Source of the DNA: an uncultured Candidatus Saccharibacteria bacterium
GTDB lineage: Bacteria > Patescibacteriota > Minisyncoccia > Phycocordibacterales > WO2-35-19
Direction: 5' to 3'
DNA length: 64,000 nucleotides
NCBI GenBank assembly: GCA_964392285.1
Contig: CAYMOW010000002.1
Coordinates: 1 to 64,000, forward strand
A model generated the notes under the pieces. The model worked only from the letters and a program-made list of their open reading frames with translations. It searched no databases and was not told where the DNA came from. Made by a program: the position numbers and the translations under genes. Below, piece after piece: positions 440 through 28,500 of the stretch; within the stretch, counting starts at the first letter, position 1, and each line of letters opens with the position of its first letter.

Positions 440-1957
440 TTATACGCCAGTAATCTTTTCGATCGAAGCACCGATTGAGTTTAGTCGTTCGACCACATCT
501 TCATAACCGCGATTAATCGAATAGACATTGCGGAGGATAGAAACACCGGGCGCGGCGAGCATAGCAATAAGTATGATCATCGCCGGGCGAAGCGCCGGCG
601 GACAAACAAGTTGAGCCGGTTTGAGCGGTGTTGGCCCAGTCACAAAAACTCGGTGCGGGTCGGCAAGGGTGATATTTGCCCCCAACCGATTGAGCTCGGT
701 AAAATAAATCGCCCGATTCTCCCACATCCAATCGTGAATGAGCGTGGTACCCTCGGCTTGCGTAGCGATCGGCACAAAGAAAGGCAGATTGTCTGAGTTG
801 AGCCCAGGGTAAGGCAGCGGATGAATTTTGTCTCGCAGAGATTTGAGCTTAGACGGCAAGAGGCTTAGGTCGACCAATTTGGTTTTACCATTTTTGGCTA
901 AATATTCTTTAGAAGTTTTATATTTGAGACCCATCATCTTGAGCTTTAGCAGTTCGACCGCCAAGAAATCAATCGGACAGCGCAAAATTTTCAGACTAGA
1001 TTTGGTGGTAACCGCCGCCCCAATAAACATCATCGACTCAATCGGATCTTCGCTGTTGTAATACTCGACATTCTGATTTATCTCTTTGAGTCCGTGGACG
1101 CGCAGATTGGTCGTGCCGACACCTTCGATCTCCACTCCCAATTTCTGCAAAAAGAAACAAACTTCTTGGACCTGATAATTGGGCGGCGCAAAATGAATTT
1201 CAGTTACACCCGGCACCAAGGCCGCCATCATGATGGCATTGATCGCGGCTGTATCGCTCGCCTCATACATCACAATTTTAGCTTTGTGGATCTTTGTACT
1301 CGAAACCTCATAGCGCTTTTCGACCGTCTTGATCGAAACTCCAAACTCGGCCAAAGCCGAGCGATGAGCGCCGATAGTTCGTTCGCCCATCTTGCAACCA
1401 CCAGAATGAAGCAAGACAAACTTACCCAAATTGTGCACCAGCGCCGGCAAAAGCATCAAGCTTGAGCGGACATTGGCAACCGACGGGTGAAGCAGACCTT
1501 GCTTGTCAAACTTTTTGGGTGGCTCGATCTCGAGAGTTTGCTTGTCTTGCCACCTGACTTTGACGCCAAGGGCTGTGAGTATCTCGATCATTCGACTAAC
1601 CTCTTCGATCCTCGGAATACCGTGCAGTGTGGTTGTGCCTCGATTGAGAAGCGCGGCAGAGAGGAGCCCCATGGCGCCATTCTTGGAAGGGTTGGTAGTG
1701 ATCGAGCCATGAAGCTTCCGACCGCCCTCGATCCGAAAGTCGATCGAATCAGAGAGCGAAACAATCTTGTGTTCGAGCGCGTCGCCGATGCGCAAGAGTT
1801 CGCTCGCCGTCAGATTTTGCCGACCACTCTCAATTCGCGCAATGGTACTCTGAGCCGTATTGAGCCTCTTTGCGAGCTCTTCTTGAGTAAGGAGCCTCTT
1901 TTCACGCAATCTTTTGATAAATTCACCGATGGCTTTCTGGTTTTGATTGGTTTTCAT
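440..1957 (-). CDS. murA: UDP-N-acetylglucosamine 1-carboxyvinyltransferase MurA with an in-frame N-terminal XRE-type helix-turn-helix domain
   Basis: ORF 440..2230. The real start is most likely ATG at 1957 (MKTNQNQKAIGEFIKRLREKRLLTQEELAKRLNTAQSTIARIESGRQNLTASELLRIGDAL = classic XRE HTH). This is directly followed by the MurA core (KLHGSITTNPSKNGAMGLLSAALL, GGCKMGERTIGAHRSAL, C-terminal NRGYEDVVERL). The 91 codons upstream would overlap the murB start region. Confidence 0.8.
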   Translation of the reverse strand: MKTNQNQKAIGEFIKRLREKRLLTQEELAKRLNTAQSTIARIESGRQNLTASELLRIGDALEHKIVSLSDSIDFRIEGGRKLHGSITTNPSKNGAMGLLSAALLNRGTTTLHGIPRIEEVSRMIEILTALGVKVRWQDKQTLEIEPPKKFDKQGLLHPSVANVRSSLMLLPALVHNLGKFVLLHSGGCKMGERTIGAHRSALAEFGVSIKTVEKRYEVSSTKIHKAKIVMYEASDTAAINAIMMAALVPGVTEIHFAPPNYQVQEVCFFLQKLGVEIEGVGTTNLRVHGLKEINQNVEYYNSEDPIESMMFIGAAVTTKSSLKILRCPIDFLAVELLKLKMMGLKYKTSKEYLAKNGKTKLVDLSLLPSKLKSLRDKIHPLPYPGLNSDNLPFFVPIATQAEGTTLIHDWMWENRAIYFTELNRLGANITLADPHRVFVTGPTPLKPAQLVCPPALRPAMIILIAMLAAPGVSILRNVYSINRGYEDVVERLNSIGASIEKITGV

Positions 1958-1991
1958 ACTAGCAATATAGCATATGTGATATAATAAATAT

Positions 1992-3023
1992 ATGATGTAT
2001 GTGGAAAGCGAAGCTCTAATCCCCAACTCCTTTGCGCTAAAATCAAAGGCTAGGTTTTTGCTCCAAATTAAAACCAAAGCAGACGTTCTCGACGCCGACC
2101 GTTTGGCCAAAGAAAAGAAGTTGCCTCTCCTCACCTTGGGCTCAGGCACCAACGTAATCCTACCCGAATATATTGAGGCCATAGTCGCCCTAACCAAAAC
2201 AAAAGGCCTAAAAACAAAAGACCTCCACATCGAGGTTCAGGCTGGTGAGGAGTGGGACAGGGTGGTTGGGTTTGCAGTCGAGAATAATCTTTCGGGTCTT
2301 GAAGCACTTTCGTCTATCCCTGGCAAAGCTGGCTCAGCTCCAATCCAAAACATTGGCGCTTACGGCACAGAAATTGGAGACGCTCTTGTCTCCGTCGAAG
2401 CCTACGACACCTCAAAAAAAGATTTTGTGGTTATCAGAAAAAAGGATTGCGGTTTTAGCTATCGCGACAGCCTTTTCAAAAGAAACCCCAACCGATTTAT
2501 AATTACCTCGCTTATCCTAGAGCTCTCCAAAGAATCTCCAAGTATCCCCAATTACAAAGATGTCCAAAGTTATTTCGCCAAAAGGGAGAATCCAAAACCC
2601 AAACTCAAAGAAATACGGGAGGCGATTATAGAAATAAGACAAAACAAATTGCCCGATTATCACCAAATTCCCAACTGCGGCTCATTCTTCAAAAATCCAA
2701 TCATCGAAACCAAACTGGCCCAAAAAATAAAACAAGACTTCCCCGACCTGCCAATATATACCCCAAACCTCCCAACGTCCGACGTTGGGAGATCGAAAAC
2801 TTCAAACAAAGTCAAAATTCCGGCTGGCTACCTAATCGAAAAAGCTGGTCTCAAAGGCGCAAACATAGACAACATAGTCGTTTATGAGCGCAACGCTCTT
2901 GTCCTCACTAACCCCTTTGGTGCTTCCTTTGCCAACCTAGTGTCAGCCAAAAACAAAATCCAAAAAATTGTCTTCCAAAAATTCGGTGTCCTGCTCGAGC
3001 CGGAAGTAAATATAAGAATATAA
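1992..3023 (+). CDS. murB: UDP-N-acetylenolpyruvoylglucosamine reductase MurB
   Basis: FAD-binding-domain motifs LGSGTNVI and the MurB C-terminal signature NCGSFFKNP; divergent from murA with a 34-bp shared intergenic region. Confidence 0.85.
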   Translation: MMYVESEALIPNSFALKSKARFLLQIKTKADVLDADRLAKEKKLPLLTLGSGTNVILPEYIEAIVALTKTKGLKTKDLHIEVQAGEEWDRVVGFAVENNLSGLEALSSIPGKAGSAPIQNIGAYGTEIGDALVSVEAYDTSKKDFVVIRKKDCGFSYRDSLFKRNPNRFIITSLILELSKESPSIPNYKDVQSYFAKRENPKPKLKEIREAIIEIRQNKLPDYHQIPNCGSFFKNPIIETKLAQKIKQDFPDLPIYTPNLPTSDVGRSKTSNKVKIPAGYLIEKAGLKGANIDNIVVYERNALVLTNPFGASFANLVSAKNKIQKIVFQKFGVLLEPEVNIRI

Positions 3024-4811: not shown

Positions 4812-5174
4812 ATTTACACAAACAAATTGTGCGTGGCGATACTTCTGCCACGCACGTTACGGATTGATCTGTTCTTGTTTTTTCCGCCCGCAGATCACCT
4901 CTGCGAGGCGGGCAAAAAAGTATGGCACGGCCATTAGGCCGAGCCAAAAACCGATAGCGAGTGAGGTTTTGAACCTCACTTGTTCCCCCTTCCCCAACCC
5001 CTCTTGGGGTCGGAAAGAAAACTCAAAAAAAGCGCGGTGATCGCAACAACCGTAGGGATCACCGACGGAAAAACCAGCTGAAGAATCTTTCTCATCTAAA
5101 AACCATTATTGCATAAAAGGCCTAAAAGACAAAATGTGGAAAAAAAGGATAAGTTTTGGTAGACTCTTAGGAGC

Positions 5175-5257
5175 GCGTCGGTGGTAGAGTGGTCAATTAC
5201 AACAGACTGTAAATCTGTCGGCTTCGGCCTACGCAGGTTCGAATCCTGCCCGGCGCA
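5175..5257 (+). tRNA. tRNA-Tyr (anticodon GTA), long variable arm
   Basis: Folded by hand: acceptor GCGTCGG/CCGGCGC, D-arm GTAG-AGTGGTCAA-TTAC, anticodon stem ACAGA/TCTGT with loop CTGTAAA, variable arm CGGCTTCGGCCTAC, T-arm GCAGG-TTCGAAT-CCTGC. CCA is not encoded. Confidence 0.85.
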
Positions 5258-5261
5258 CAAG

Positions 5262-5290
5262 AAAAAATCCGCACCTGCGGATTTTTTTGT
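5262..5290 (+). terminator. rho-independent terminator after tRNA-Tyr
   Basis: AAAAAATCCGCACCTGCGGATTTTTTTGT: hairpin plus T-run. Confidence 0.6.
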
Positions 5291-5443
5291 GCGTCGGGAG
5301 GAAAAGCGTGGGACGCTTTTCCGTCAGGATTCGAACGACGGAGCGGGACCCACTTTAGCAAAAGTGGGAGCGAGTCGGTGCCCAGACCAAAAATTTGTGG
5401 CTGACAAATTTTTGAGTCGAGGGAGAAATTCCTGCCCGGCGCA
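5291..5443 (+). ncRNA. tRNA-Tyr-derived / tRNA-like structured element (unknown identity)
   Basis: Begins with the same GCGTCGG as the tRNA-Tyr 5' acceptor strand and ends with TCCTGCCCGGCGCACA, identical to the tRNA-Tyr 3' T-stem plus acceptor. The interior has no D or anticodon arm but four strong hairpins (GGAAAAGCG-TGGGA-CGCTTTTCC; CCGTC-AGGATTCGAAC-GACGG; CCCACTTT-AGCA-AAAGTGGG; CAAAAATTTGT-GGCTG-ACAAATTTTTG). Confidence 0.3.
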
Positions 5444-5448
5444 CAGAG

Positions 5449-8139
5449 TTATTCAACACTGACTGGTGTAGTTAGGATCGAGGGTTCGATGATTGCGCCG
5501 CGGCGGCCTTTTTTGATATCGAAACAAAGCTCACCATTTTTGAGTGCAATATGCACAAAGCCACCCTTCATAATCGACTTCCCGATGATAAGCGAGGCAA
5601 TTGGATTTAGAATCTTGTTCTGGATCAAGCGCTTCAGCGGTCTGGCACCATATTGCGGGTTGTAACCTTCGCGAGCCAAATAATCGAGTGCTTCTTCGGT
5701 AATATCGATGTCTATTTCCTTAACCGAAAGTCTTTCGCGCACCAAACCGATTTGGATTTTAACGATTTCTCTGATGGCCGATCTTGGCAAAACATCAAAG
5801 ACCACAATATCGTCTAGACGATTGAGGAATTCTGGACTGAAGTGATCTTTGAGCGCTTCGAGGACCTTGTCTTTGACATTGTCATAGGAAGTATTTTCCT
5901 CACCGCTGCGTTCGCCAAAGCCCATCTTCTCCATCTTTTCGATGTATTGAGCACCGATGTTCGAAGTCATAATGATGATGGTATTTTTGAAGTTGACGGT
6001 TCGGCCCTTCGAATCGGTCAGACGACCATTGTCGAGCACTTGCAAAAGCACATTAAAGACTTCCGGATGCGCCTTCTCGATCTCGTCAAAAAGCACTATC
6101 GAGTATGGCCGATGACGCACAGACTCGGTCAAACCACCGGCATCATCGAAGCCAACATAGCCCGGAGGCGCACCAATCAGTTTGGAGACAGAGTGCTTCT
6201 CCATAAATTCAGACATATCGACTCGGATCAAAGCCTTTTCGTCGTTAAACATAAATTCAGCCAGAGCTTTGGTCAGCTCGGTCTTGCCGACTCCGGTCGG
6301 ACCAAGAAAGATAAAGCTGCCGATTGGCTTGTTCGGATCTGAAATGCCAGCACGCGAGCGCTTGATGGTATCGGAAATTTTTTGGACCGCCTCGTCTTGG
6401 CCGACAATACGCTTTTTGAGCTCGGCTTCCATTCGGCCAAGCTTTTCGGCCTCCTCTTCGAGCATGCGCGAAACCGGAATACCAGTCCATTTGGCCACAA
6501 TTTCGGCAATGTCGTTCTCGGTAATTTCTTCGCGCAAAATCTGACGTGAGCTTTGCAACTTTTTGAGCTTCTTGACTTGAGCCTCGAGCTCTTTCTGCAA
6601 CTCCGGAAGTTTGCCATAACGGATCTCGGCGGCACGAGCCAAGTCGGCCACCGCTTCGGCTGATTCGGCATTGAGACGCTCTTGCTCGAGCTCCTTCTTT
6701 AGACGTTTGATTTCGGTGACCGTCTCCTTTTCGTTCTTCCATTTGAGGTCAAGCTCGCTGGTTTCTTCGCGCATATCGGCGATTGCTTTTTCTATCTCTT
6801 GCAAACGCTTTTTGGCCTTGGCATTCTTGCCTTCAGCCTCTTTCTTTAGAGCCTCTCTTTCAATTTCGAGTTTGATGATTTTGGCATTGGTTTCGGCAAG
6901 CGCCGGAGGCATATTTTCAAGTGAAATTTTGAGATGCGAAGCCGCCTCATCGATCAGATCGACAGCCTTGTCGGGCAAAAAGCGGTCAGTAATATAACGC
7001 GAAGAAAGATTGACCGCTGATTTTATAGCATCATCAGTAATGTGCACGCCGTGGTAAAGCTCATATTTTTCTTTGAGTCCGCGCAAAATGGTTGTGGCAT
7101 CATCGATTGAAGGTTCTGACACATAAACCGGCTGGAATCTGCGAGTCAGCGCTGGGTCCTTCTCGATGTGCTTTTGGTATTCTTTGAGCGTTGTTGCACC
7201 GATAGCCCGAAGCTCACCGCGCGCCAAAGCCGGCTTGAGCATATTGGAAGCATCGAGCGAACCCTCGGCACTGCCAGCGCCGACTATGGTGTGGATCTCG
7301 TCGATAAAAAGAATTATTTTGCCTTCGGACTTTTCGATTTCTTTTATAATATTCTTCAATCTTTCCTCAAACTCACCACGATATTTGGTACCCGCCACCA
7401 AAAGCCCCAGATCTAGAGAGACTAGCTCTTTTTCACGCAACGATTCGGGCACATTGCCAGAAGCAATACGCATAGCCAAACCTTCGGCAATCGCTGTTTT
7501 GCCGACACCGGCTTCGCCGATTAGGATCGGATTGTTTTTGGTCCGACGACTAAGGATCTGAATAACCCGAGCAATCTCGTCTTCCCTACCAATGACCGGA
7601 TCGAGCTTGTTTTCTTTGGCCAAGGTTGTGAGCGAACGAGTGAATTTGGAGATAGCTTTGTTCTTTTGGTTGGGTTTGCTTTCGAAAACTCGGCCTTGCT
7701 TGATTTCTTGGATCAGAAATCTGACCTTCTCCTTCTCAATTTTAAATCTGGCCAAGATATCTTTGGCCGGACTCGGTATCTCAAGACAAGCCAAGAACAA
7801 ATGTTCGGTCGAAACAAATTCATCACCCATTGAAGAAGCGATCTTGGCTGAATCTTCTATGATCCGAGCTAGTTCTGGCAAAAGATAAATCTGATAGGAA
7901 GGCGAGATGGTGTTGCTCGAAGAGCCAGGCTCGATTGCTTCGAGCAAGGAATCAGTCAGGAGTATGGTATCAACCTCCATCCGATCAAGAATCGAAATAA
8001 CCATCGACTCTTCTTGAAGCAGGAGCGCGGTCAAAAGATGCAGAGGCCCAACGTGGTTTTGGCCACGCTCAATTACCAATTCGTGCGACTTACGAATGAC
8101 TTCTTTGGCTTTGGTTGTAAAGTTGTTGAACGGAGGCAT
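5449..8139 (-). CDS. clpB: ATP-dependent chaperone ClpB
   Basis: 896 aa with a Clp N-domain, two AAA+ modules ([19 protein letters not shown] Walker A motifs) and a long coiled-coil middle domain. Confidence 0.9.
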
Positions 8140-12086: not shown

Positions 12087-12159
12087 CCGCCCATAGCTCA
12101 GCTGGTAGAGCAGACGCCTCTTAAGCGTAAGGTCCTAGGTTCGAACCCTAGTGGGCGGA
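12087..12159 (+). tRNA. tRNA-Lys (CTT)
   Basis: Acceptor CCGCCCA/TGGGCGG, D-arm GCTC-AGCTGGTA-GAGC, anticodon loop CTCTTAA, T-arm CTAGG-TTCGAAC-CCTAG. There is one mismatch at the top of the anticodon stem. Confidence 0.7.
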
Positions 12160-12203
12160 CACGAGTAAAAAATATGAACTGCTTCATATTTTTTACTCGT
12201 GTC
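12158..12203. terminator. 20-bp perfect hairpin after tRNA-Lys
   Basis: GACACGAGTAAAAAATATGAA-CTGC-TTCATATTTTTTACTCGTGTC. Confidence 0.6.
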
Positions 12204-12493
12204 CGAGCCGGAGCGATGTTTTTGTTTGAGCTTTGCTCAAGGCAAAAACCGCGAGGCGGGATCGCAGAAAATTTGAGTCAGCAAATTTATCTGTGATGAC
12301 AATGTCCGAGGCGGAGCCATGTTTTGATAGCAATCAAAACAGGCGAGCCGGGTGAGAAGCGAATACTTGGAGCTTCGCAAGACTCATTGAGCTCGAGTCC
12401 TCGAGAGCCAATGAGTGGACAGATCCTGTAAGGATTGCGGAAATTTTCGAGCGACGGCGAGAAAATTATCCGTGACGACAAGATAGAATCGAT

Positions 12494-12575
12494 GCTGGGG
12501 TGGCGTAATTGGTAGCCGCGCTAGTCTTAGGAACTAGTGGAGTAATCCGTGGGAGTTCAAGTCTCCCCCCCAGCA
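12494..12575 (+). tRNA. tRNA-Leu (TAG), long variable arm
   Basis: Acceptor GCTGGGG/CCCCAGC, anticodon stem CTAGT/ACTAG with loop CTTAGGA, variable arm GGAGTAATCCGT, T-arm GGGAG-TTCAAGT-CTCCC. Confidence 0.8.
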
Positions 12576-12706
12576 CAGATTGAGCACGGCGAAAGCTGTG
12601 CTGGGGGTGCAGCTTTATGCAATAAAGCGTAGCACTGACTTGAAAGCCGGAGCGCGACGGCGCGAGGCGGGGTCGACCAAATTTTCAGCAGAAAATTATG
12701 GGTGAC

Positions 12707-12726
12707 CAAGTCTCCCCCCCAGCACA
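12707..12726 (+). repeat. direct repeat of the tRNA-Leu(TAG) 3' end (CAAGTCTCCCCCCCAGCACA)
   Basis: 20-nt exact copy of 12558..12577, about 130 nt downstream of the tRNA. The 12205..12700 region also carries three copies of a GCCGGAGCG...GCGAGGCGGG module and AAAATTAT[CG][CG]GTGA[CT]GAC modules. Confidence 0.6.
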
Positions 12727-12768
12727 AATGCAAAACTCGCCTTTTGGGCGAGTTTTGCATTTTGTGAT

Positions 12769-13094
12769 CCTCATTCTCATAAGCCGAATTCTGTTTCTTT
12801 GCAATAATTTATCTAGGTCCTAGATTGCTCTAGGACTCGAGCGGCACTCCCCTCGATTGCTTTCGGGGCACGGCCTTGCACAGAAGTAAGAGTTTAGTCG
12901 TTGCACCCGTATGTTGCCATACGATTACTCCACAAGGGAGCTCCTTGCCTTTCGGCTTGGACGTCACTGTTCGCATCTCGCGCCTCACGGCGGACGGGCA
13001 TTACCCGCTACTTGGCTCTCCAATCGAAATTGGAGCTGTGTTCGGACTTTCCTCTCCGACTAAAACGTCGGAGCTATTGCTCGGAATGAGAATC
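12769..13094 (-). ncRNA. rnpB: RNase P RNA (rnpB) candidate
   Basis: The minus-strand RNA contains the universal CR-I-like GAGAGGAAAGUCCGAAC near its 5' end and a CR-V-like AACAGAAUUCGGCUUAU near its 3' end. The P4 partners are GUCCGAA and UUCGGCU. The terminal P1 pairing is UCUCAUUC...GAGAAUGAG. The whole is about 326 nt and GC-rich. Confidence 0.6.
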
Positions 13095-25666: not shown

Positions 25667-26761
25667 TTATTCAGCACAGATAACATAATGCAGATATTCT
25701 GTCGTCTTGCTTGCTGTATAATTCCTGTTTTCTGATTTATCAGCCCTAAAACGACTATGCTCTTTTGTAAAACATCCATATTTACCCCGGAGACTCATTA
25801 TTTCTCTTATATCATCGGGGGTCATCAAACCTTCATTGTTATAACTCAAAAATATATATTTGACTTTGGCCTTCAATATCAAATCTTTAAACGATTTTCT
25901 GACCTGGTTTTTTGAACAATACAAAGATTTCTGATCAGTATAATCTCGTAGACCAGTCTTCCCATATATTTTAGGATTATCATACCTAGCAATTGTCTCT
26001 AAAATATGATAATTCGTTGCATATTGACGATGATTATATGGTGGGTCAAGATATAAAACATCTCCGTTAATTTTTTCGACGATTTTATTTATATCCATAT
26101 TGAAAATTTCGTGATCTTGTTCATTAACAATCAATTCTGCTGGTTTCAAGATCAGACTACTTTGAGCTGTCTTTTTTAGATTCTTCAGGAAAGCTCCGTA
26201 GACGGATGCTGTGTTCGCATATTTATCAATCGATTCGACTAAACTAGCGATCAAAAAATAATATTCATCATCAGAGATTAAATCTTTCTCTTTCCAATTT
26301 TCAATTTTTTGACGAATAGCGTCGCACCGCATTCCATTTTCATTTGAAAAATATTGTCTTGATTCTTCTTTGTCTTTGGTTTCTCCGAGACAATAATTTT
26401 TATAGATAAAGCCTTTTACACCCTCCAAATTTGATAGATATTCACAAACAAAATCTTTACGTTTTTCTGTGTCAATATTTTTTAGACCAGCAATTTCTTT
26501 TGTTAGTTTTATAAATTTTAATTCCTTATGATTCCCAACATAGTGCCTATTCAATACATAACTGTAATATTGAATATCGTTAGAAATTATTTTGTAACCT
26601 CTTTTCTTGAAATAACTACCGACAACTCCAGTTCCAGCAAATAAGTCACAAAAAACCTTGCAGTTTTTATCAACTACTTTATTAATTGATTCTTCCAAGA
26701 ATTCTAACAAAGATAGTTTACTGCCGATATAATTCATAAATTCATGATAACATACCCGCAA
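25667..26761 (-). CDS. Dam-family (alpha-class, D12) N6-adenine DNA methyltransferase
   Basis: N-terminal NYIGSKLSLLEFL and FCDLFAGTGVVG (motif I); C-terminal LYLDPPYN (motif IV DPPY). Confidence 0.8.
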   Translation of the reverse strand: MRVCYHEFMNYIGSKLSLLEFLEESINKVVDKNCKVFCDLFAGTGVVGSYFKKRGYKIISNDIQYYSYVLNRHYVGNHKELKFIKLTKEIAGLKNIDTEKRKDFVCEYLSNLEGVKGFIYKNYCLGETKDKEESRQYFSNENGMRCDAIRQKIENWKEKDLISDDEYYFLIASLVESIDKYANTASVYGAFLKNLKKTAQSSLILKPAELIVNEQDHEIFNMDINKIVEKINGDVLYLDPPYNHRQYATNYHILETIARYDNPKIYGKTGLRDYTDQKSLYCSKNQVRKSFKDLILKAKVKYIFLSYNNEGLMTPDDIREIMSLRGKYGCFTKEHSRFRADKSENRNYTASKTTEYLHYVICAE

Positions 26762-26799
26762 TAAAATCTATACGAAAACATAGGCTTTTGTGGTAGTAT

Positions 26800-27549
26800 T
26801 TGCCTATGTTAAAAAACGACTTAAATAATGAACGAATTGGCGTCTCTGCTGAAATTTCAATTGCAGATATTTTTGAAATTCCTATCAGTGACAACTATCG
26901 AAATCGCGGAGCACAAGATATTACAAACACCATCAAACCTATCATTGCCGATATCTTCAACTTAAATAATATTCCTCCACCAATCAAACATGTTGCGGAA
27001 AATCAAAATACTATAGATTTTATACTTGAAGGCAATAAAACTTTATCCGTAAAAACAAATAAACAAAAATTGGGCAAAGCTGCACCACAAAAAATTGGCC
27101 AGGCATCATCAAACACTTGGTTTGCGATTTTAGCAGAACGATTAGGTATAGCATATATACCGACAGCTTATCCTGAAAAAGTCAAACTTTTTAAAATAAT
27201 TGCACTAACAAGGATCGAGGAACTACTTTTTATTTACTGGGAATACATGTTCGATTGCGATTTTTTGATCCATATTTTCAATATCGTTGATTCTAATAAC
27301 AACCTTACTCGTGATCCGAAATACATAGTAACTAAGAAAACCAGTAGCCCTATTTGGGATCCTGCAAAAATTACATTTACAAGGCCAACTGTATCCGAGT
27401 GGAATGAGAGCAATACTGTAAAATACGAATACGATGGTGTGGCAATAGGTGAATTTCAAGTCCACAACAATAGGGACAATTTTAAATTTCGTTTCAATAT
27501 GGCCGGTATTTTCAAGTTAATGACAGAAGGTCGTCTCAGTTTTTCTTAA
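26800..27549 (+). CDS. putative type II restriction endonuclease (hypothetical, sits between two methyltransferases)
   Basis: 249-aa ORF with no recognisable family. It is divergent from the Dam-like MTase and convergent with the second MTase; AT-rich. Confidence 0.4.
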   Translation: MPMLKNDLNNERIGVSAEISIADIFEIPISDNYRNRGAQDITNTIKPIIADIFNLNNIPPPIKHVAENQNTIDFILEGNKTLSVKTNKQKLGKAAPQKIGQASSNTWFAILAERLGIAYIPTAYPEKVKLFKIIALTRIEELLFIYWEYMFDCDFLIHIFNIVDSNNNLTRDPKYIVTKKTSSPIWDPAKITFTRPTVSEWNESNTVKYEYDGVAIGEFQVHNNRDNFKFRFNMAGIFKLMTEGRLSFS

Positions 27550-28321
27550 AAACCATTATGTATTCGTGTTTGAATATATAATAATCACTTGATAACGCGC
27601 GGTATCTCCAAATTCCTTCTTTATTCTGTTTGCCACGATTACCAACCATATTCTTTATTATAATACTTTTCAGAATTAGACCTAGTTTTTGAGCCTCATT
27701 CATACAATAAAAACCCAATGGTACCCACTTCCCCATTTTATATGCATCACCAATAACAATCGCCAAATATCTACCATTTTCCAAAACATCTATTGTATTC
27801 TTTAAAACTTCAGCAAATTTTCCTAAAAACTCTTTCAAGGATTTTGCGTTTGATAAATCATCTTTTAAGTCACTAAACTTTATAATATCCGCATATGGTG
27901 GGTGCAATATGGCCATTTGCACATTTTTCTTTTTGTGTTTTTCTAAAATATCTTTTACTTTTTCAAAAGTTTGGATTTTTGTGCTGTCACCTATAATTAG
28001 CTCAGAAAAATTACCTTTCGCATCAATATTCTCACTGACATAATCAACGAGTTTTTTCTGTATATCGATCCCAATAAAATTCCTGTTTAGACTCTCTGCC
28101 TCATAAGCAGTGGTTCCACTTCCTAAAAATGGGTCCAGGATTGTTTCGTTCTTTTTTGTGTACCTAGATATTAACTGGTGAGGAATTTGTGGAACAAAAT
28201 TCCCATGGTAAAAACCGCTATGTTTTCCTGACTTGTCTCTTTCTGAAATAATCCAGAGACTATCCGTCCAAATTTCTGATTCTTTCCACTTACTTAAATC
28301 AAGATCATTAAAAATTGGCAT
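27536..28321 (-). CDS. DNA methyltransferase, N4/N6 amino-MTase (PF01555-like)
   Basis: HGNFVPQIPHQLISRY (motif X-like), ILDPFLGSGTT (motif I), ILHPPYADI (motif IV-like). The table ORF extends to 28441, but those 40 extra codons read through tRNA-Glu; ATG at 28321 (MPIFNDL) is used instead. Confidence 0.7.
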   Translation of the reverse strand: MPIFNDLDLSKWKESEIWTDSLWIISERDKSGKHSGFYHGNFVPQIPHQLISRYTKKNETILDPFLGSGTTAYEAESLNRNFIGIDIQKKLVDYVSENIDAKGNFSELIIGDSTKIQTFEKVKDILEKHKKKNVQMAILHPPYADIIKFSDLKDDLSNAKSLKEFLGKFAEVLKNTIDVLENGRYLAIVIGDAYKMGKWVPLGFYCMNEAQKLGLILKSIIIKNMVGNRGKQNKEGIWRYRALSSDYYIFKHEYIMVFKKN

Positions 28322-28332
28322 CTTAATATTTG

Positions 28333-28406
28333 TGACGCTACCGGGATTTGAACCCGGGTACCAAGCTTGAAAAGCTTGTGTCCTAACCAGACTAGACGAT
28401 AGCGCC
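28333..28406 (-). tRNA. tRNA-Glu (TTC)
   Basis: Reverse complement GGCGCTATCGTCTAGTCTGGTTAGGACACAAGC-TTTTCAA-GCTTGGTACCCGGGTTCAAATCCCGGTAGCGTCA. Confidence 0.8.
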
Positions 28407-28500
28407 TTTCGACTCGCTTTGCTCGCTTCAAGGCAAGCCAAGGAGAGAGTAATAGTAACATATTTTGATAAAAAGGCAAAAAATGATAGGCTGTAATTAG

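Follow-up and report, generated by a model that had tools for sequence, protein, structure and literature searches.

Structured elements with tRNA-matched arms at the 3′ flanks of tRNA genes in Patescibacteria

Our results identify the structured segment that follows tRNA-Tyr in a 64-kb stretch of DNA (the window, by which we mean the whole stretch analyzed) as a multi-copy folded element outside the catalogued families searched, and they lead us to infer, conditionally, how such elements could spread and what they may do. The family is widespread in Patescibacteria (Paceibacteria/Parcubacteria), abundant, strand-specific and tied to the 3′ flanks of tRNA genes, and the arms of its members are templated on the neighboring tRNA. 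To our knowledge no family with this architecture has been described, and none is present in Rfam 15 or in the literature searched; the element is neither a tRNA, a tmRNA nor a group I intron of the type found in Patescibacteria. We favor, with about even confidence, a model in which the segment represents, at full length, a large family of small, non-autonomous and non-coding insertion modules of tRNA 3′ flanks in this phylum.

The window is chromosomal DNA with a G+C content of 44%, and the closest relatives of its ClpB (66–91% identity) are found in MAGs labelled Zambryskibacteria, Taylorbacteria, Paceibacterota and Parcubacteria. Its features are collected in Table 1. The last nucleotides of tRNA-Tyr (source 'a') span the T loop, the 3′ strand of the T stem, the 3′ strand of the acceptor stem, the discriminator and 2 trailer nucleotides. 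Behind them lies t1, a hairpin set between an A tract and a T tract. It was missing from the output of a simple terminator pattern scan; from its sequence we predict that it can terminate tRNA-Tyr on the plus strand as well as clpB on the minus strand. The element, 153–155 nt long, follows t1. The initial annotation had it start at 5291 with the 5′ acceptor strand of tRNA-Tyr (GCGTCGG, at 5175), which the sequence confirms, and end in a copy of the tRNA 3′ end; this repeat is exact, although its length is 16 nt (5430–5445 copies 5244–5259) and not the 17 nt originally given. The copy stops 3 nt short of the clpB stop codon, and the chance expectation for recurrence of a 16-mer inside 200 nt is ~5e-8.

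Two further relations had been overlooked in that annotation: 5325–5336 is antisense to the T loop and stem, and 5288–5298 is the inverted partner of the acceptor end. The first part of the 5′ arm (a'acc) is, with one G-T pair, the reverse complement of 5249–5259, that is, of the acceptor 3′ strand, discriminator and trailer, and it pairs with 5435–5445 as well. Since TGTGCGTCGGG is inverted relative to CCCGGCGCACA, the tRNA 3′ end, t1 and the 5′ arm make up a single long palindrome. The second part (a'T) is the exact reverse complement of 5237–5248 (the T-stem 3′ strand, the T loop and G53) and covaries with the T-loop variants of relatives. CAGGATTCGAAC is thus antisense tRNA T loop and T stem, which accounts for the segment GGAUUCGAACG that had seemed reminiscent of tmRNA. 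In the Tyr copy the two parts are separated by a hairpin, H1, that interrupts the arm at the acceptor/T-stem boundary and has homologues with covarying stems in relatives of both interior types, A and B.

Table 1. Coordinates of the features discussed, numbered along the window
Feature	Position	Strand	Basis or remark
tRNA-Tyr(GTA)	5175–5258	+	ARAGORN; Rfam RF00005, 60.8 bits
Arm source 'a', last ~23 nt of tRNA-Tyr	5237–5259	+	template of both arms
t1, perfect palindromic terminator hairpin, AAAAAATCCGCA CC TGCGGATTTTTT	5262–5287	.	sequence; inverted repeat
5′ arm part 1 (a'acc), TGTGCGTCGGG	5288–5298	+	repeat analysis
H1 hairpin, GGAAAAGCGT GGG ACGCTTTTCC	5300–5322	+	inverted repeat; alignment of relatives
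5′ arm part 2 (a'T), CAGGATTCGAAC	5325–5336	+	repeat analysis
Core domain 1	5336–5377	+	MFE fold; covariation
P2, CGAC/GTCG	5336–5339 with 5374–5377	+	MFE fold; covariation
P3 hairpin, loop TTAGCAAA	5349–5368	+	MFE fold; covariation
Core domain 2	5381–5423	+	MFE fold; inverted repeat; covariation
P5, AT-rich hairpin	5388–5414	+	MFE fold; inverted repeat; covariation
3′ arm (distal 'a'), TCCTGCCCGGCGCACA	5430–5445	+	direct repeat
clpB stop codon	5449–5451	-	sequence
tRNA-Lys(CTT)	12087–12160	+	host of third locus
Third locus, degenerate composite	12161–12493	+	covariance model, 31.0 and 27.2 bits
Lys locus, terminator palindrome	12161–12200
Lys locus, core copies	12198–12320 and 12435–12476	+
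Lys locus, extra module, GGGTGAGAA-hairpin-CGCAAG	12350–12381	+
tRNA-Leu(TAG)	12494–12576	+	host of second member
Second member, behind tRNA-Leu	12577–12726	+	covariance model, 77.2 bits
Leu copy, a'acc, GTGCTGGGGG	12598–12607	+
Leu copy, H1	about 12609–12633	+
Leu copy, a'T, GACTTGAAAG	12637–12646	+
Leu copy, minimal core (A2), 62 nt	12646–12707	+
Leu copy, distal arm, CAAGTCTCCCCCCCAGCACA	12707–12726	+	exact 20-nt copy of 12558–12577
Terminator after Leu copy	12730–12758

The segment 5291–5443 has a computed fold of -71 kcal/mol (z = -5.7; 0 of 200 shuffles were equally stable) with hairpins H1, P3 and P5. This agrees with the earlier description of a structured element that has no tRNA cloverleaf: ARAGORN and Rfam RF00005 call a tRNA only at 5175–5258, ARAGORN finds no tmRNA in the window, and neither ARAGORN nor Rfam calls anything on 5291–5443, even at E ≤ 10. 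The core is a three-way junction made up of the closing helix formed by both arms, a domain in which P2 is followed by a purine-rich internal loop and then P3, a GG-rich linker, and the P4/P5 hairpin, in which P4 pairs CCC..GAC with GTC..GGG. The Tyr copy belongs to subtype A1, along with the copies at loci L003, L035 and L030.

Covariation provides strong support for this fold. The consensus of 17 type-A elements contains 26 pairs, 23 of them with compensatory changes. In the metagenome alignment, which was fitted to the model so that pairing is somewhat inflated, double changes occur in 24 of the 26 pairs, and 89.8% of cells are paired compared with 63.7% in shuffled alignments; the number of double-change cells is 591, against 173 in the shuffles, none of 500 shuffles reached the observed values, and slid controls gave 34–50% pairing. 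The compensatory structure lies on one strand, as is expected of structured non-coding RNAs in general. At one P4 pair, 40 sequences have G-U and 36 have G-C, and since G-U would read as an A-C mismatch on the opposite strand, the selected structure is that of the tRNA-sense strand.

The window holds two other copies. A BLAST search with the Tyr-type sequence across the window found no second copy, which argues against a MITE scattered through it, and the copies behind tRNA-Leu and tRNA-Lys were detected only by a structure-aware model and a tRNA-centered scan. The Lys locus, whose arm is 5 nt long (GTCCG), occupies the entire Lys–Leu spacer. The further copies that the initial annotation had suggested looking for therefore exist, at three loci in the window and in more than 130 matches in related DNA.

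To place the family in related genomes we drew on two samples. Among 80 clpB-containing loci, tRNA-Tyr adjoins clpB in ~58, mostly co-directional and sometimes inverted, as in the window. In many of them tRNA-Tyr is followed on the same strand by a terminator and an element of ~110–190 nt that ends in an exact 15–21 nt copy of the 3′ end of its own genome's tRNA-Tyr; these 3′ ends vary among genomes and the repeats vary accordingly. The 5′ arm likewise mirrors T-loop variants, TTCAAAT being matched by ATTTGAA and TTCGAGT by ACTCGAA, and the same arm pattern is found behind tRNA-Trp, tRNA-Leu and tRNA-Lys. A tRNA-centered scan of the clpB loci and the window found a direct or inverted copy downstream of 36 of 129 tRNAs. 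The first covariance model, built on the alignment of the 17 type-A elements, gave 45 matches in the window and the clpB loci; all 36 of the best matches share the strand of the closest tRNA upstream, 35 of them no more than 330 nt from it. The second sample came from a single core-pattern scan of metagenome sequence, which yielded at least 120 stretches; the 80 loci fetched from it contain 93 matches. The total is 138 matches in ~1.27 Mb of Patescibacteria DNA, of which 107 lie within 400 nt downstream of a same-strand tRNA gene. Counted by tRNA, a type-A match lies no more than 400 nt downstream on the same strand for 37 of 129 tRNAs near clpB and for 74 of 144 on contigs that had been picked because they contain the core, giving 111 occupied tRNAs of 19 amino-acid isotypes.

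The arms record how closely each element is fitted to its tRNA. Exact direct repeats run to 15–21 nt and inverted copies to as much as 21 nt, with sequences that differ by genome and isotype. Among 55 tRNA-linked A2 copies from the metagenome, the 3′ arm is an exact copy of at least 18 nt (18–21 nt) in 29 and a copy of 12–17 nt in 8, an antisense T block of at least 9 nt is present in 23 and an antisense acceptor block of at least 7 nt in 12; nine of the 29 combine a perfect direct repeat with no antisense arm. At L149, where the T loop is non-palindromic, the 5′ arm is clearly antisense and the 3′ arm sense. An encoded CCA is copied in both orientations at L164, and at both L164 and L210 the antisense arm holds UGG where CCA is encoded in the genome, which indicates that the arms were copied from the gene and not from the mature tRNA. 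Sites at which the tRNA copy and the distal copy disagree show which of them the antisense arm matches: it is complementary to the former in 76 cases, to the latter in 3 and to neither in another 3. The bulk of the 76 concern T54/T55, which lie beyond the reach of the distal copy, and the rest come from loci with a decayed distal copy. At L069 perfect palindromes of up to 36 bp per arm extend from the tRNA 3′ end through t1 into the 5′ arm.

Two observations are compatible with the distal copy being the ancestral tRNA 3′ end. At eight loci CCA follows the distal copy while the tRNA copy runs into the terminator. At L032 a 3.4-kb islet begins directly behind the tRNA, with the junction ..GGCGCAC/ACTAAAATAACC, and at L038 this same islet end (ACTAAAATAACC) adjoins the distal copy of a tRNA-proximal element. 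With a direct repeat on either side of the insert, the point of insertion is defined only as a range whose limits are the T loop (55/56) and the 3′ boundary (74/75). The length of the repeat follows the tRNA end, being 19 nt where CCA is not encoded and 21 nt where it is.

The family also varies and turns over. Some copies are armless and consist of the tRNA, t1, GUGC, the core and ACA; others form tandem arrays with the unit a, t1, a', core; nested, truncated and solo copies are present too, and the set of copies differs between close relatives. In two cases an armless core is located at the 3′ end of a ribosomal-protein-like gene, one of these genes being rplL-like, so a tRNA is not an obligatory target. 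Copies on the same contig are about as similar to one another (identity 0.417) as copies on different contigs (0.405); the lack of any excess speaks against recent bursts and is compatible with old elements passed on vertically, and a recent intragenomic burst is accordingly unsupported. Among the fetched loci there was no clean pair of filled and empty alleles with identical flanks. H1 divides the antisense arm exactly, with neither gap nor overlap, and at L164 and L198 H1 and the core are nearly identical while the arms differ on both sides of H1, a combination that lies outside any simple insertion or fold-back mechanism.

The complete anatomy, in order, is the tRNA, t1, a 5′ antisense arm, the three-way-junction core and a 3′ sense arm. 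The 5′ arm is the reverse complement of tRNA positions ~54–74/76, usually split by H1, and the 3′ arm is a direct copy of the tRNA from C56/R57 to the 3′ end. This is equivalent to an insertion of ~170–190 nt between 19–21 nt direct repeats of the 3′ third of the tRNA, one copy of which, with the terminator, completes the tRNA gene, so that the tRNA is still made; the design of the module leaves the gene intact. We envision a scenario in which insertion creates the direct repeat out of the target, which would explain its exactness over 19 isotypes even where the antisense arm mismatches, and in which the antisense arm is held complementary to the functional tRNA copy through palindrome correction across t1 or through selection. 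We give this account of the two arms an even chance of being right. The tRNA-sense structure would most likely form in RNA made from the tRNA promoter by reading through t1, with the arms closing the core into a helix like that of acceptor and T stem; alternatively, the selected structure could be carried by a single-stranded DNA intermediate.

Folding the tRNA and element together illustrates what such an RNA might look like. The computed fold of the transcript 5175–5446 has -131.8 kcal/mol (z = -8.5); in it the distal copy fills out the tRNA body by pairing with the 5′ strands of the acceptor and T stem of the tRNA. The proximal 3′ third, that of the tRNA itself, is base-paired to the antisense arm, t1 forming the apex and H1 a branch. 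A transcript ending at t1 would be a normal pre-tRNA, and one reading through it is predicted to be a tRNA body with a compact domain of ~190 nt in its T loop.

What speaks for an insertion module is the position on the strand of the tRNA, the census over 19 isotypes, the tRNA-matched arms, the direct repeats that occur without antisense arms, the antisense arm's agreement with the tRNA copy, the signs that the distal copy is ancestral, the turnover, the covarying core and the joint fold of tRNA and element; against it count the missing mobilizing gene, the similarity of copies within and between contigs, the exact split by H1, the cores behind protein genes, the lack of a clean filled/empty pair and the strong terminator t1, which precedes the element in most loci and makes read-through expression uncertain. 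No gene for an integrase, transposase, recombinase, reverse transcriptase or Cas1-like protein was found in the 64-kb window, where Pfam identified no integrase among 30 proteins, or noticed beside copies, so a mobilizing enzyme would act in trans. Of the readings proposed in the initial annotation, a miniature tRNA-derived mobile element comes closest: the elements do form a multi-copy family, but the copies sit behind tRNAs and are not scattered, and their arms are copied from the neighboring tRNA and are not constant. A bolder version of the insertion model, which we hold to be unlikely at present, would make the family a new class of small structured RNA or ssDNA module that installs itself at essentially any tRNA gene with rewritable arms and no recombinase of its own. 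Such a module would have at its center a conserved core with a catalytic or protein-binding role, enclosed by an internal antisense 'guide' and a sense stretch copied from the target's 3′ third. It would be self-complementing in that it brings a replacement tRNA 3′ end and a terminator, and it would amount to a programmable tRNA-targeting mobile element of ultra-small bacteria.

The main rival to an insertion module is a structured RNA gene or cis-element of tRNA transcription units that benefits the host, co-evolves in place and is not mobile, a real if rather unlikely possibility. Its closing helix would mimic the acceptor/T-arm minihelix of the neighboring tRNA and could act in tRNA 3′-end metabolism; it might, for example, be a substrate or decoy of RNase P, RNase Z or the CCA-adding enzyme, sense read-through or stabilize the 3′ end. 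Much of the evidence is consistent with such a role: between genomes whose ClpB identity is only 72–82%, copies at one and the same tRNA have conserved loops and differ by compensatory changes, the arms track changes in the T stem of the local tRNA, the structure is strand-specific with its conserved G-U pair, H1 occupies the point at which the D and anticodon arms branch off the acceptor/T stack, and cores are also found at the 3′ ends of ribosomal-protein-like genes, upstream of terminators. Deep conservation and the lack of excess similarity inside contigs, of a mobilizing gene in the window and of matches in viral, phage and plasmid collections point the same way. However, only ~30–50% of tRNAs are occupied and related genomes differ; many copies are truncated, tandem, nested, armless or solo; the nine copies with a perfect direct repeat but no antisense arm indicate that the minihelix is not universal; the 5′ arm pairs with the discriminator and trailer too, unlike a tRNA acceptor end; and a strong terminator usually stands ahead of the element.

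The other rivals each account for a part of the architecture. In a model of replication errors, template switching at the palindromic terminator and at the T loop, itself nearly palindromic (TTCGAA), would duplicate the tRNA 3′ end once in inverted and once in direct orientation, with neither function nor mobility. The long perfect palindromes of L069, the inclusion of the complement of the genomic trailer or encoded CCA in the antisense arm, and the fact that this arm follows the tRNA copy all suit it, and template switching may be the source or upkeep of the antisense arm. As a complete explanation, which we consider quite improbable, it is refuted by the conserved core of 60–100 nt, which with 24 of 26 covarying pairs at more than 130 loci and 19 isotypes it leaves unexplained, as it does H1 and the direct repeats with no inverted counterpart. 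The initial annotation had also proposed an attL/attR-like remnant of an element that entered and left tRNA-Tyr; this would be the scar of a large integrase-borne island or prophage, since deleted or excised. The repeat is indeed att-like, and its extent from T loop to 3′ end is the one classically seen for identity blocks where elements integrate into tRNA genes. Gene-carrying islets lie at the same boundary in L032 and L038. Integrated elements are well documented to leave partial tRNA copies (PMC9897764). Yet 111 tRNAs are followed by the same short architecture (~110–190 nt) and core, a covarying three-way junction is not what separate deletions would repeatedly leave behind, and no integrase remnant was found, so the segment is not a chance remnant of a large excised element and we rate this origin as very improbable. 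Scarcely credible, finally, are three further identities: a tmRNA-like RNA, a tRNA-like RNA that can be aminoacylated, and a module of 3′ structure in the clpB mRNA. The arms can form an acceptor/T-stem-like closing helix, the GGAUUCGAAC motif is present, and the clpB transcript of the window would cross the antisense strand of the element up to t1; to that extent the earlier suggestion of a tRNA-like RNA stands. But the 5′ arm is purely antisense and pairs with discriminator and trailer as well, GGAUUCGAAC is antisense T loop and changes with the T loop of the tRNA, there is no tag reading frame, and the sole permuted-tmRNA match is sub-threshold (22.6 bits against a threshold of 47) and falls on the tRNA 3′ end and t1 of L164. 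The position and strand of the elements follow tRNAs of any isotype, with clpB convergent or co-directional, which rules out the idea of a clpB module.

Several other candidates were rejected. A CGAA target-site duplication in the T loop is ruled out by non-palindromic T loops, and a 5′ arm that is a sense duplicate of the tRNA 5′ strands by relatives, whose arms lack the tRNA's own G-U-containing 5′ strand and carry its perfect complement and antisense T loops instead. Anticodon mimicry by the CUGUAAG loop of type B fails in that the same loop occurs behind Trp and Leu tRNAs. By eye, the junction lengths of a type I hammerhead fit but its conserved nucleotides do not, and we claim no resemblance to a hammerhead or K-turn. 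CCA is present in ~20–30% of distal copies, about the proportion of element-free tRNA-Tyr genes that encode CCA; an ancestral CCA explains this equally well, so that retroposition of a CCA-tailed RNA is unneeded. Pfam gave no support to a homing endonuclease in an ORF of L012. As to a viral origin, the 66 matches of a first viral scan were all at chance, neither the covariance model nor a stricter pattern had a match in IMG/VR, and BLAST against annotated phages and plasmids returned none. In Rfam 15 the elements match no family; the only matches at gathering score were to tRNA and RNase P, and the rest were at chance level.

If this description holds, Patescibacteria with streamlined genomes of 0.5–1 Mb keep a structured module of ~150 nt behind up to one-third to one-half of their sampled tRNAs, a range that rests on 37 of 129 tRNAs near clpB and 74 of 144 on contigs chosen for the core. 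This could mean an unrecognized way of targeting and duplicating tRNA 3′ ends, and thus a new mobile element with possibly programmable insertion, or else an unrecognized layer of tRNA gene expression or maturation in a major bacterial radiation. In either case the partial tRNA copies and palindromes will mislead tRNA annotation, the prediction of att sites and islands, and the assembly of candidate-phyla genomes.

Among known systems, tmRNA combines a tRNA-like domain with a tag reading frame and pseudoknots in ~300–400 nt; Rfam gives no tmRNA signal on our element, which has 153 nt. With tRNA-like RNAs more broadly (the tmRNA domain, the bacterial Y-RNA-like YrlA, mascRNA and viral tRNA-like structures) it shares a possible 12-bp stack of acceptor and T stem and an insertion where the D and anticodon arms would emerge. 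Unlike them, its 5′ strand is a perfect antisense with the discriminator paired too, the core takes the place of the T loop, its helix is copied from the neighboring tRNA, and neither Rfam nor ARAGORN detects it. A group I intron has a P3–P9 catalytic core and interrupts its gene, which must then be restored by splicing. Group I introns of Patescibacteria are likewise RNA-structured insertions linked to tRNA genes of the same phylum (PMC13011429), and their internal guide sequence resembles our internal segment that can pair with both flanks. However, they are larger, self-splicing and located at 35/36 in the anticodon loop (PMC13011429), whereas the element, with a core of 60–100 nt and no match to Intron_gpI, lies between T loop and 3′ flank behind a complete tRNA, so no splicing is needed. 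The same survey found six group II introns in bacterial tRNAs, one of them encoding a reverse transcriptase, and none in Patescibacteria (PMC13011429).

Casposons, Cas1-type and target-primed insertions resemble the element in the long duplication (14–21 nt) of a tRNA gene 3′ end, but the window encodes no Cas1, PolB or reverse transcriptase, constant terminal inverted repeats are lacking, and the duplication is not of fixed length but follows the tRNA end (19 nt if CCA is absent and 21 nt if it is present). Integron attC sites and the attP hairpin of CTX phage, which mimics dif, are folded single-strand recombination sites. By analogy, the inverted target-like copies ~100 nt apart could fold into a duplex mimic of the target, and a strand-specific fold in which structure is kept above sequence might be read in the same way; here, though, no IntI- or Xer-type site or enzyme is implicated and the target would be the 3′ third of any tRNA. 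Like MITEs, REPs and REPINs, the elements are short, non-coding, multi-copy, bounded by inverted repeats and placed at gene 3′ ends, often without a nearby transposase. They differ in having terminal repeats that are taken from the adjacent tRNA and change with every isotype, an interior three-way junction with a strand-specific G-U pair, and several copies per contig that are not near-identical; no partner element was found.

The closest parallels are the phages, ICEs and islands that integrate into tRNA genes. In both, a direct repeat of the 3′ part of the tRNA flanks the insert, as is typical of tyrosine recombinases (here 16 nt in the window, 15–21 nt in relatives, and 18–21 nt in 29 of 55 copies), the insert-proximal copy keeps the tRNA functional, and successive inserts accrete at one tRNA. 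Here, by contrast, the insert is only ~110–190 nt, non-coding and devoid of an integrase, with no Pfam integrase among the 30 window proteins; one core stands behind 19 isotypes with matching arms; and there is an extra, antisense copy of the att-like segment. The element thus lacks the integrase that defines tRNA-integrating elements and the constant termini that define MITEs and REPs. By analogy it would work most like tRNA-integrating elements that restore the tRNA 3′ end, while in appearance it resembles a repeat of the MITE/REP type.

The juxtaposition of clpB and tRNA-Tyr is kept across Paceibacteria, judged from a comparison of 80 clpB-containing loci. About nine of these loci (L001, L003, L006, L017, L027, L033, L048, L071 and L077) share with the window a tRNA that is inverted relative to clpB. 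L001 is the closest relative, with a ClpB that is 91% identical, and comparison of window 5090-5460 with L001 6670-6925 gives about 90% identity in the promoter-like region upstream of the tRNA. The two tRNA-Tyr alleles differ at about 20 of 84 positions, and all that L001 has of the element, 3' of the terminator, is a truncated start (TGTGCGAGCCGGAGCC), which continues into the stop codon of clpB. Judged from this comparison, the tRNA and its flank appear to have been exchanged as a cassette. A second pair, L011 (6728-6860) and L012 (6728-7558), comes from genomes that are 94-96% identical through clpB; their tRNA-Tyr alleles are unlike, the D arm, the anticodon arm and the variable arm all being different. 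In L012 there is an additional 215-aa ORF whose end falls inside the tRNA start. Pfam returned weak helix-turn-helix matches alone for this ORF and did not support a homing-endonuclease-like motif spotted by eye.

The 3' boundary of tRNA-Tyr is the exact insertion point of gene-carrying islets in two loci, L032 and L038. The islet ends are conserved between them, the left consisting of ACTAAAATAACCTT followed by a hairpin and the right terminating in ATTCTCCAGTACTCYGCAC. [quoted passage not shown] In the L038 islet the cargo is a GC-rich ORF of 183 aa, for which Nfu_N is a weak match. Neither islet contains a recombinase gene.

Elements also lie behind tRNA-like 3' ends that are not called as genes. 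At L150 ARAGORN made no call on the tRNA- or tmRNA-like 3' end (GGGGTTCGAATCCCTATCCCCGAACCA) that precedes the element, and the RNA-like unit upstream seems to be tandemly repeated. The antisense arm at L215 is perfect over 22 nt, and here too the preceding tRNA-like 3' end is uncalled; it may belong to a tRNA that contains an intron.

Coordinates of elements, islets and other genes in the window and the compared loci
Feature	Locus	Coordinates	Strand	Remarks
Additional ORF	L012	6863-7510		215 aa
Islet	L032	6799-10201		gene-carrying
Islet	L038	about 305-1160 nt 3' of tRNA-Tyr		gene-carrying
Element	L150	about 880-977		element orientation
GGUGAGAA-hairpin-CGCAAG module	window	12350-12381		also L017, L030, L166, L175, L199, L206, L219
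Armless core	L193	9668-9788		directly 3' of stop codon
Armless core	L170	4935-5052		directly 3' of stop codon
RNase P RNA (class A)	window	12764-13092	-	only 111.7 bits; gathering score 100
Two neighboring DNA methyltransferases	window	25667-28441		D12 class N6-adenine; N6_N4_Mtase
EPSP-synthase/MurA-fold enzyme	window	440-2230	-	N-terminal helix-turn-helix (HTH_3)

Among the other window genes, RNase P RNA is convergent with the element of tRNA-Leu(TAG) and with the terminator of that element (12730-12758), and lies immediately downstream of both. The mechanical ORF of the second methyltransferase (27536-28441, minus strand) overlaps tRNA-Glu (28332-28406), and its true start is therefore probably further downstream. 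The joining of HTH_3 and an EPSP-synthase/MurA fold in one protein is an unusual fusion.

Some elements have an extra conserved module 5' of the core, in which GGUGAGAA is followed by a hairpin and then CGCAAG. Core copies that lack the tRNA-derived arms occur at L193 and L170 behind ribosomal-protein-like genes, whose products end in ..AGAKVTLK and ..RKRKQWSKR, respectively; the core is therefore not confined to tRNA flanks.
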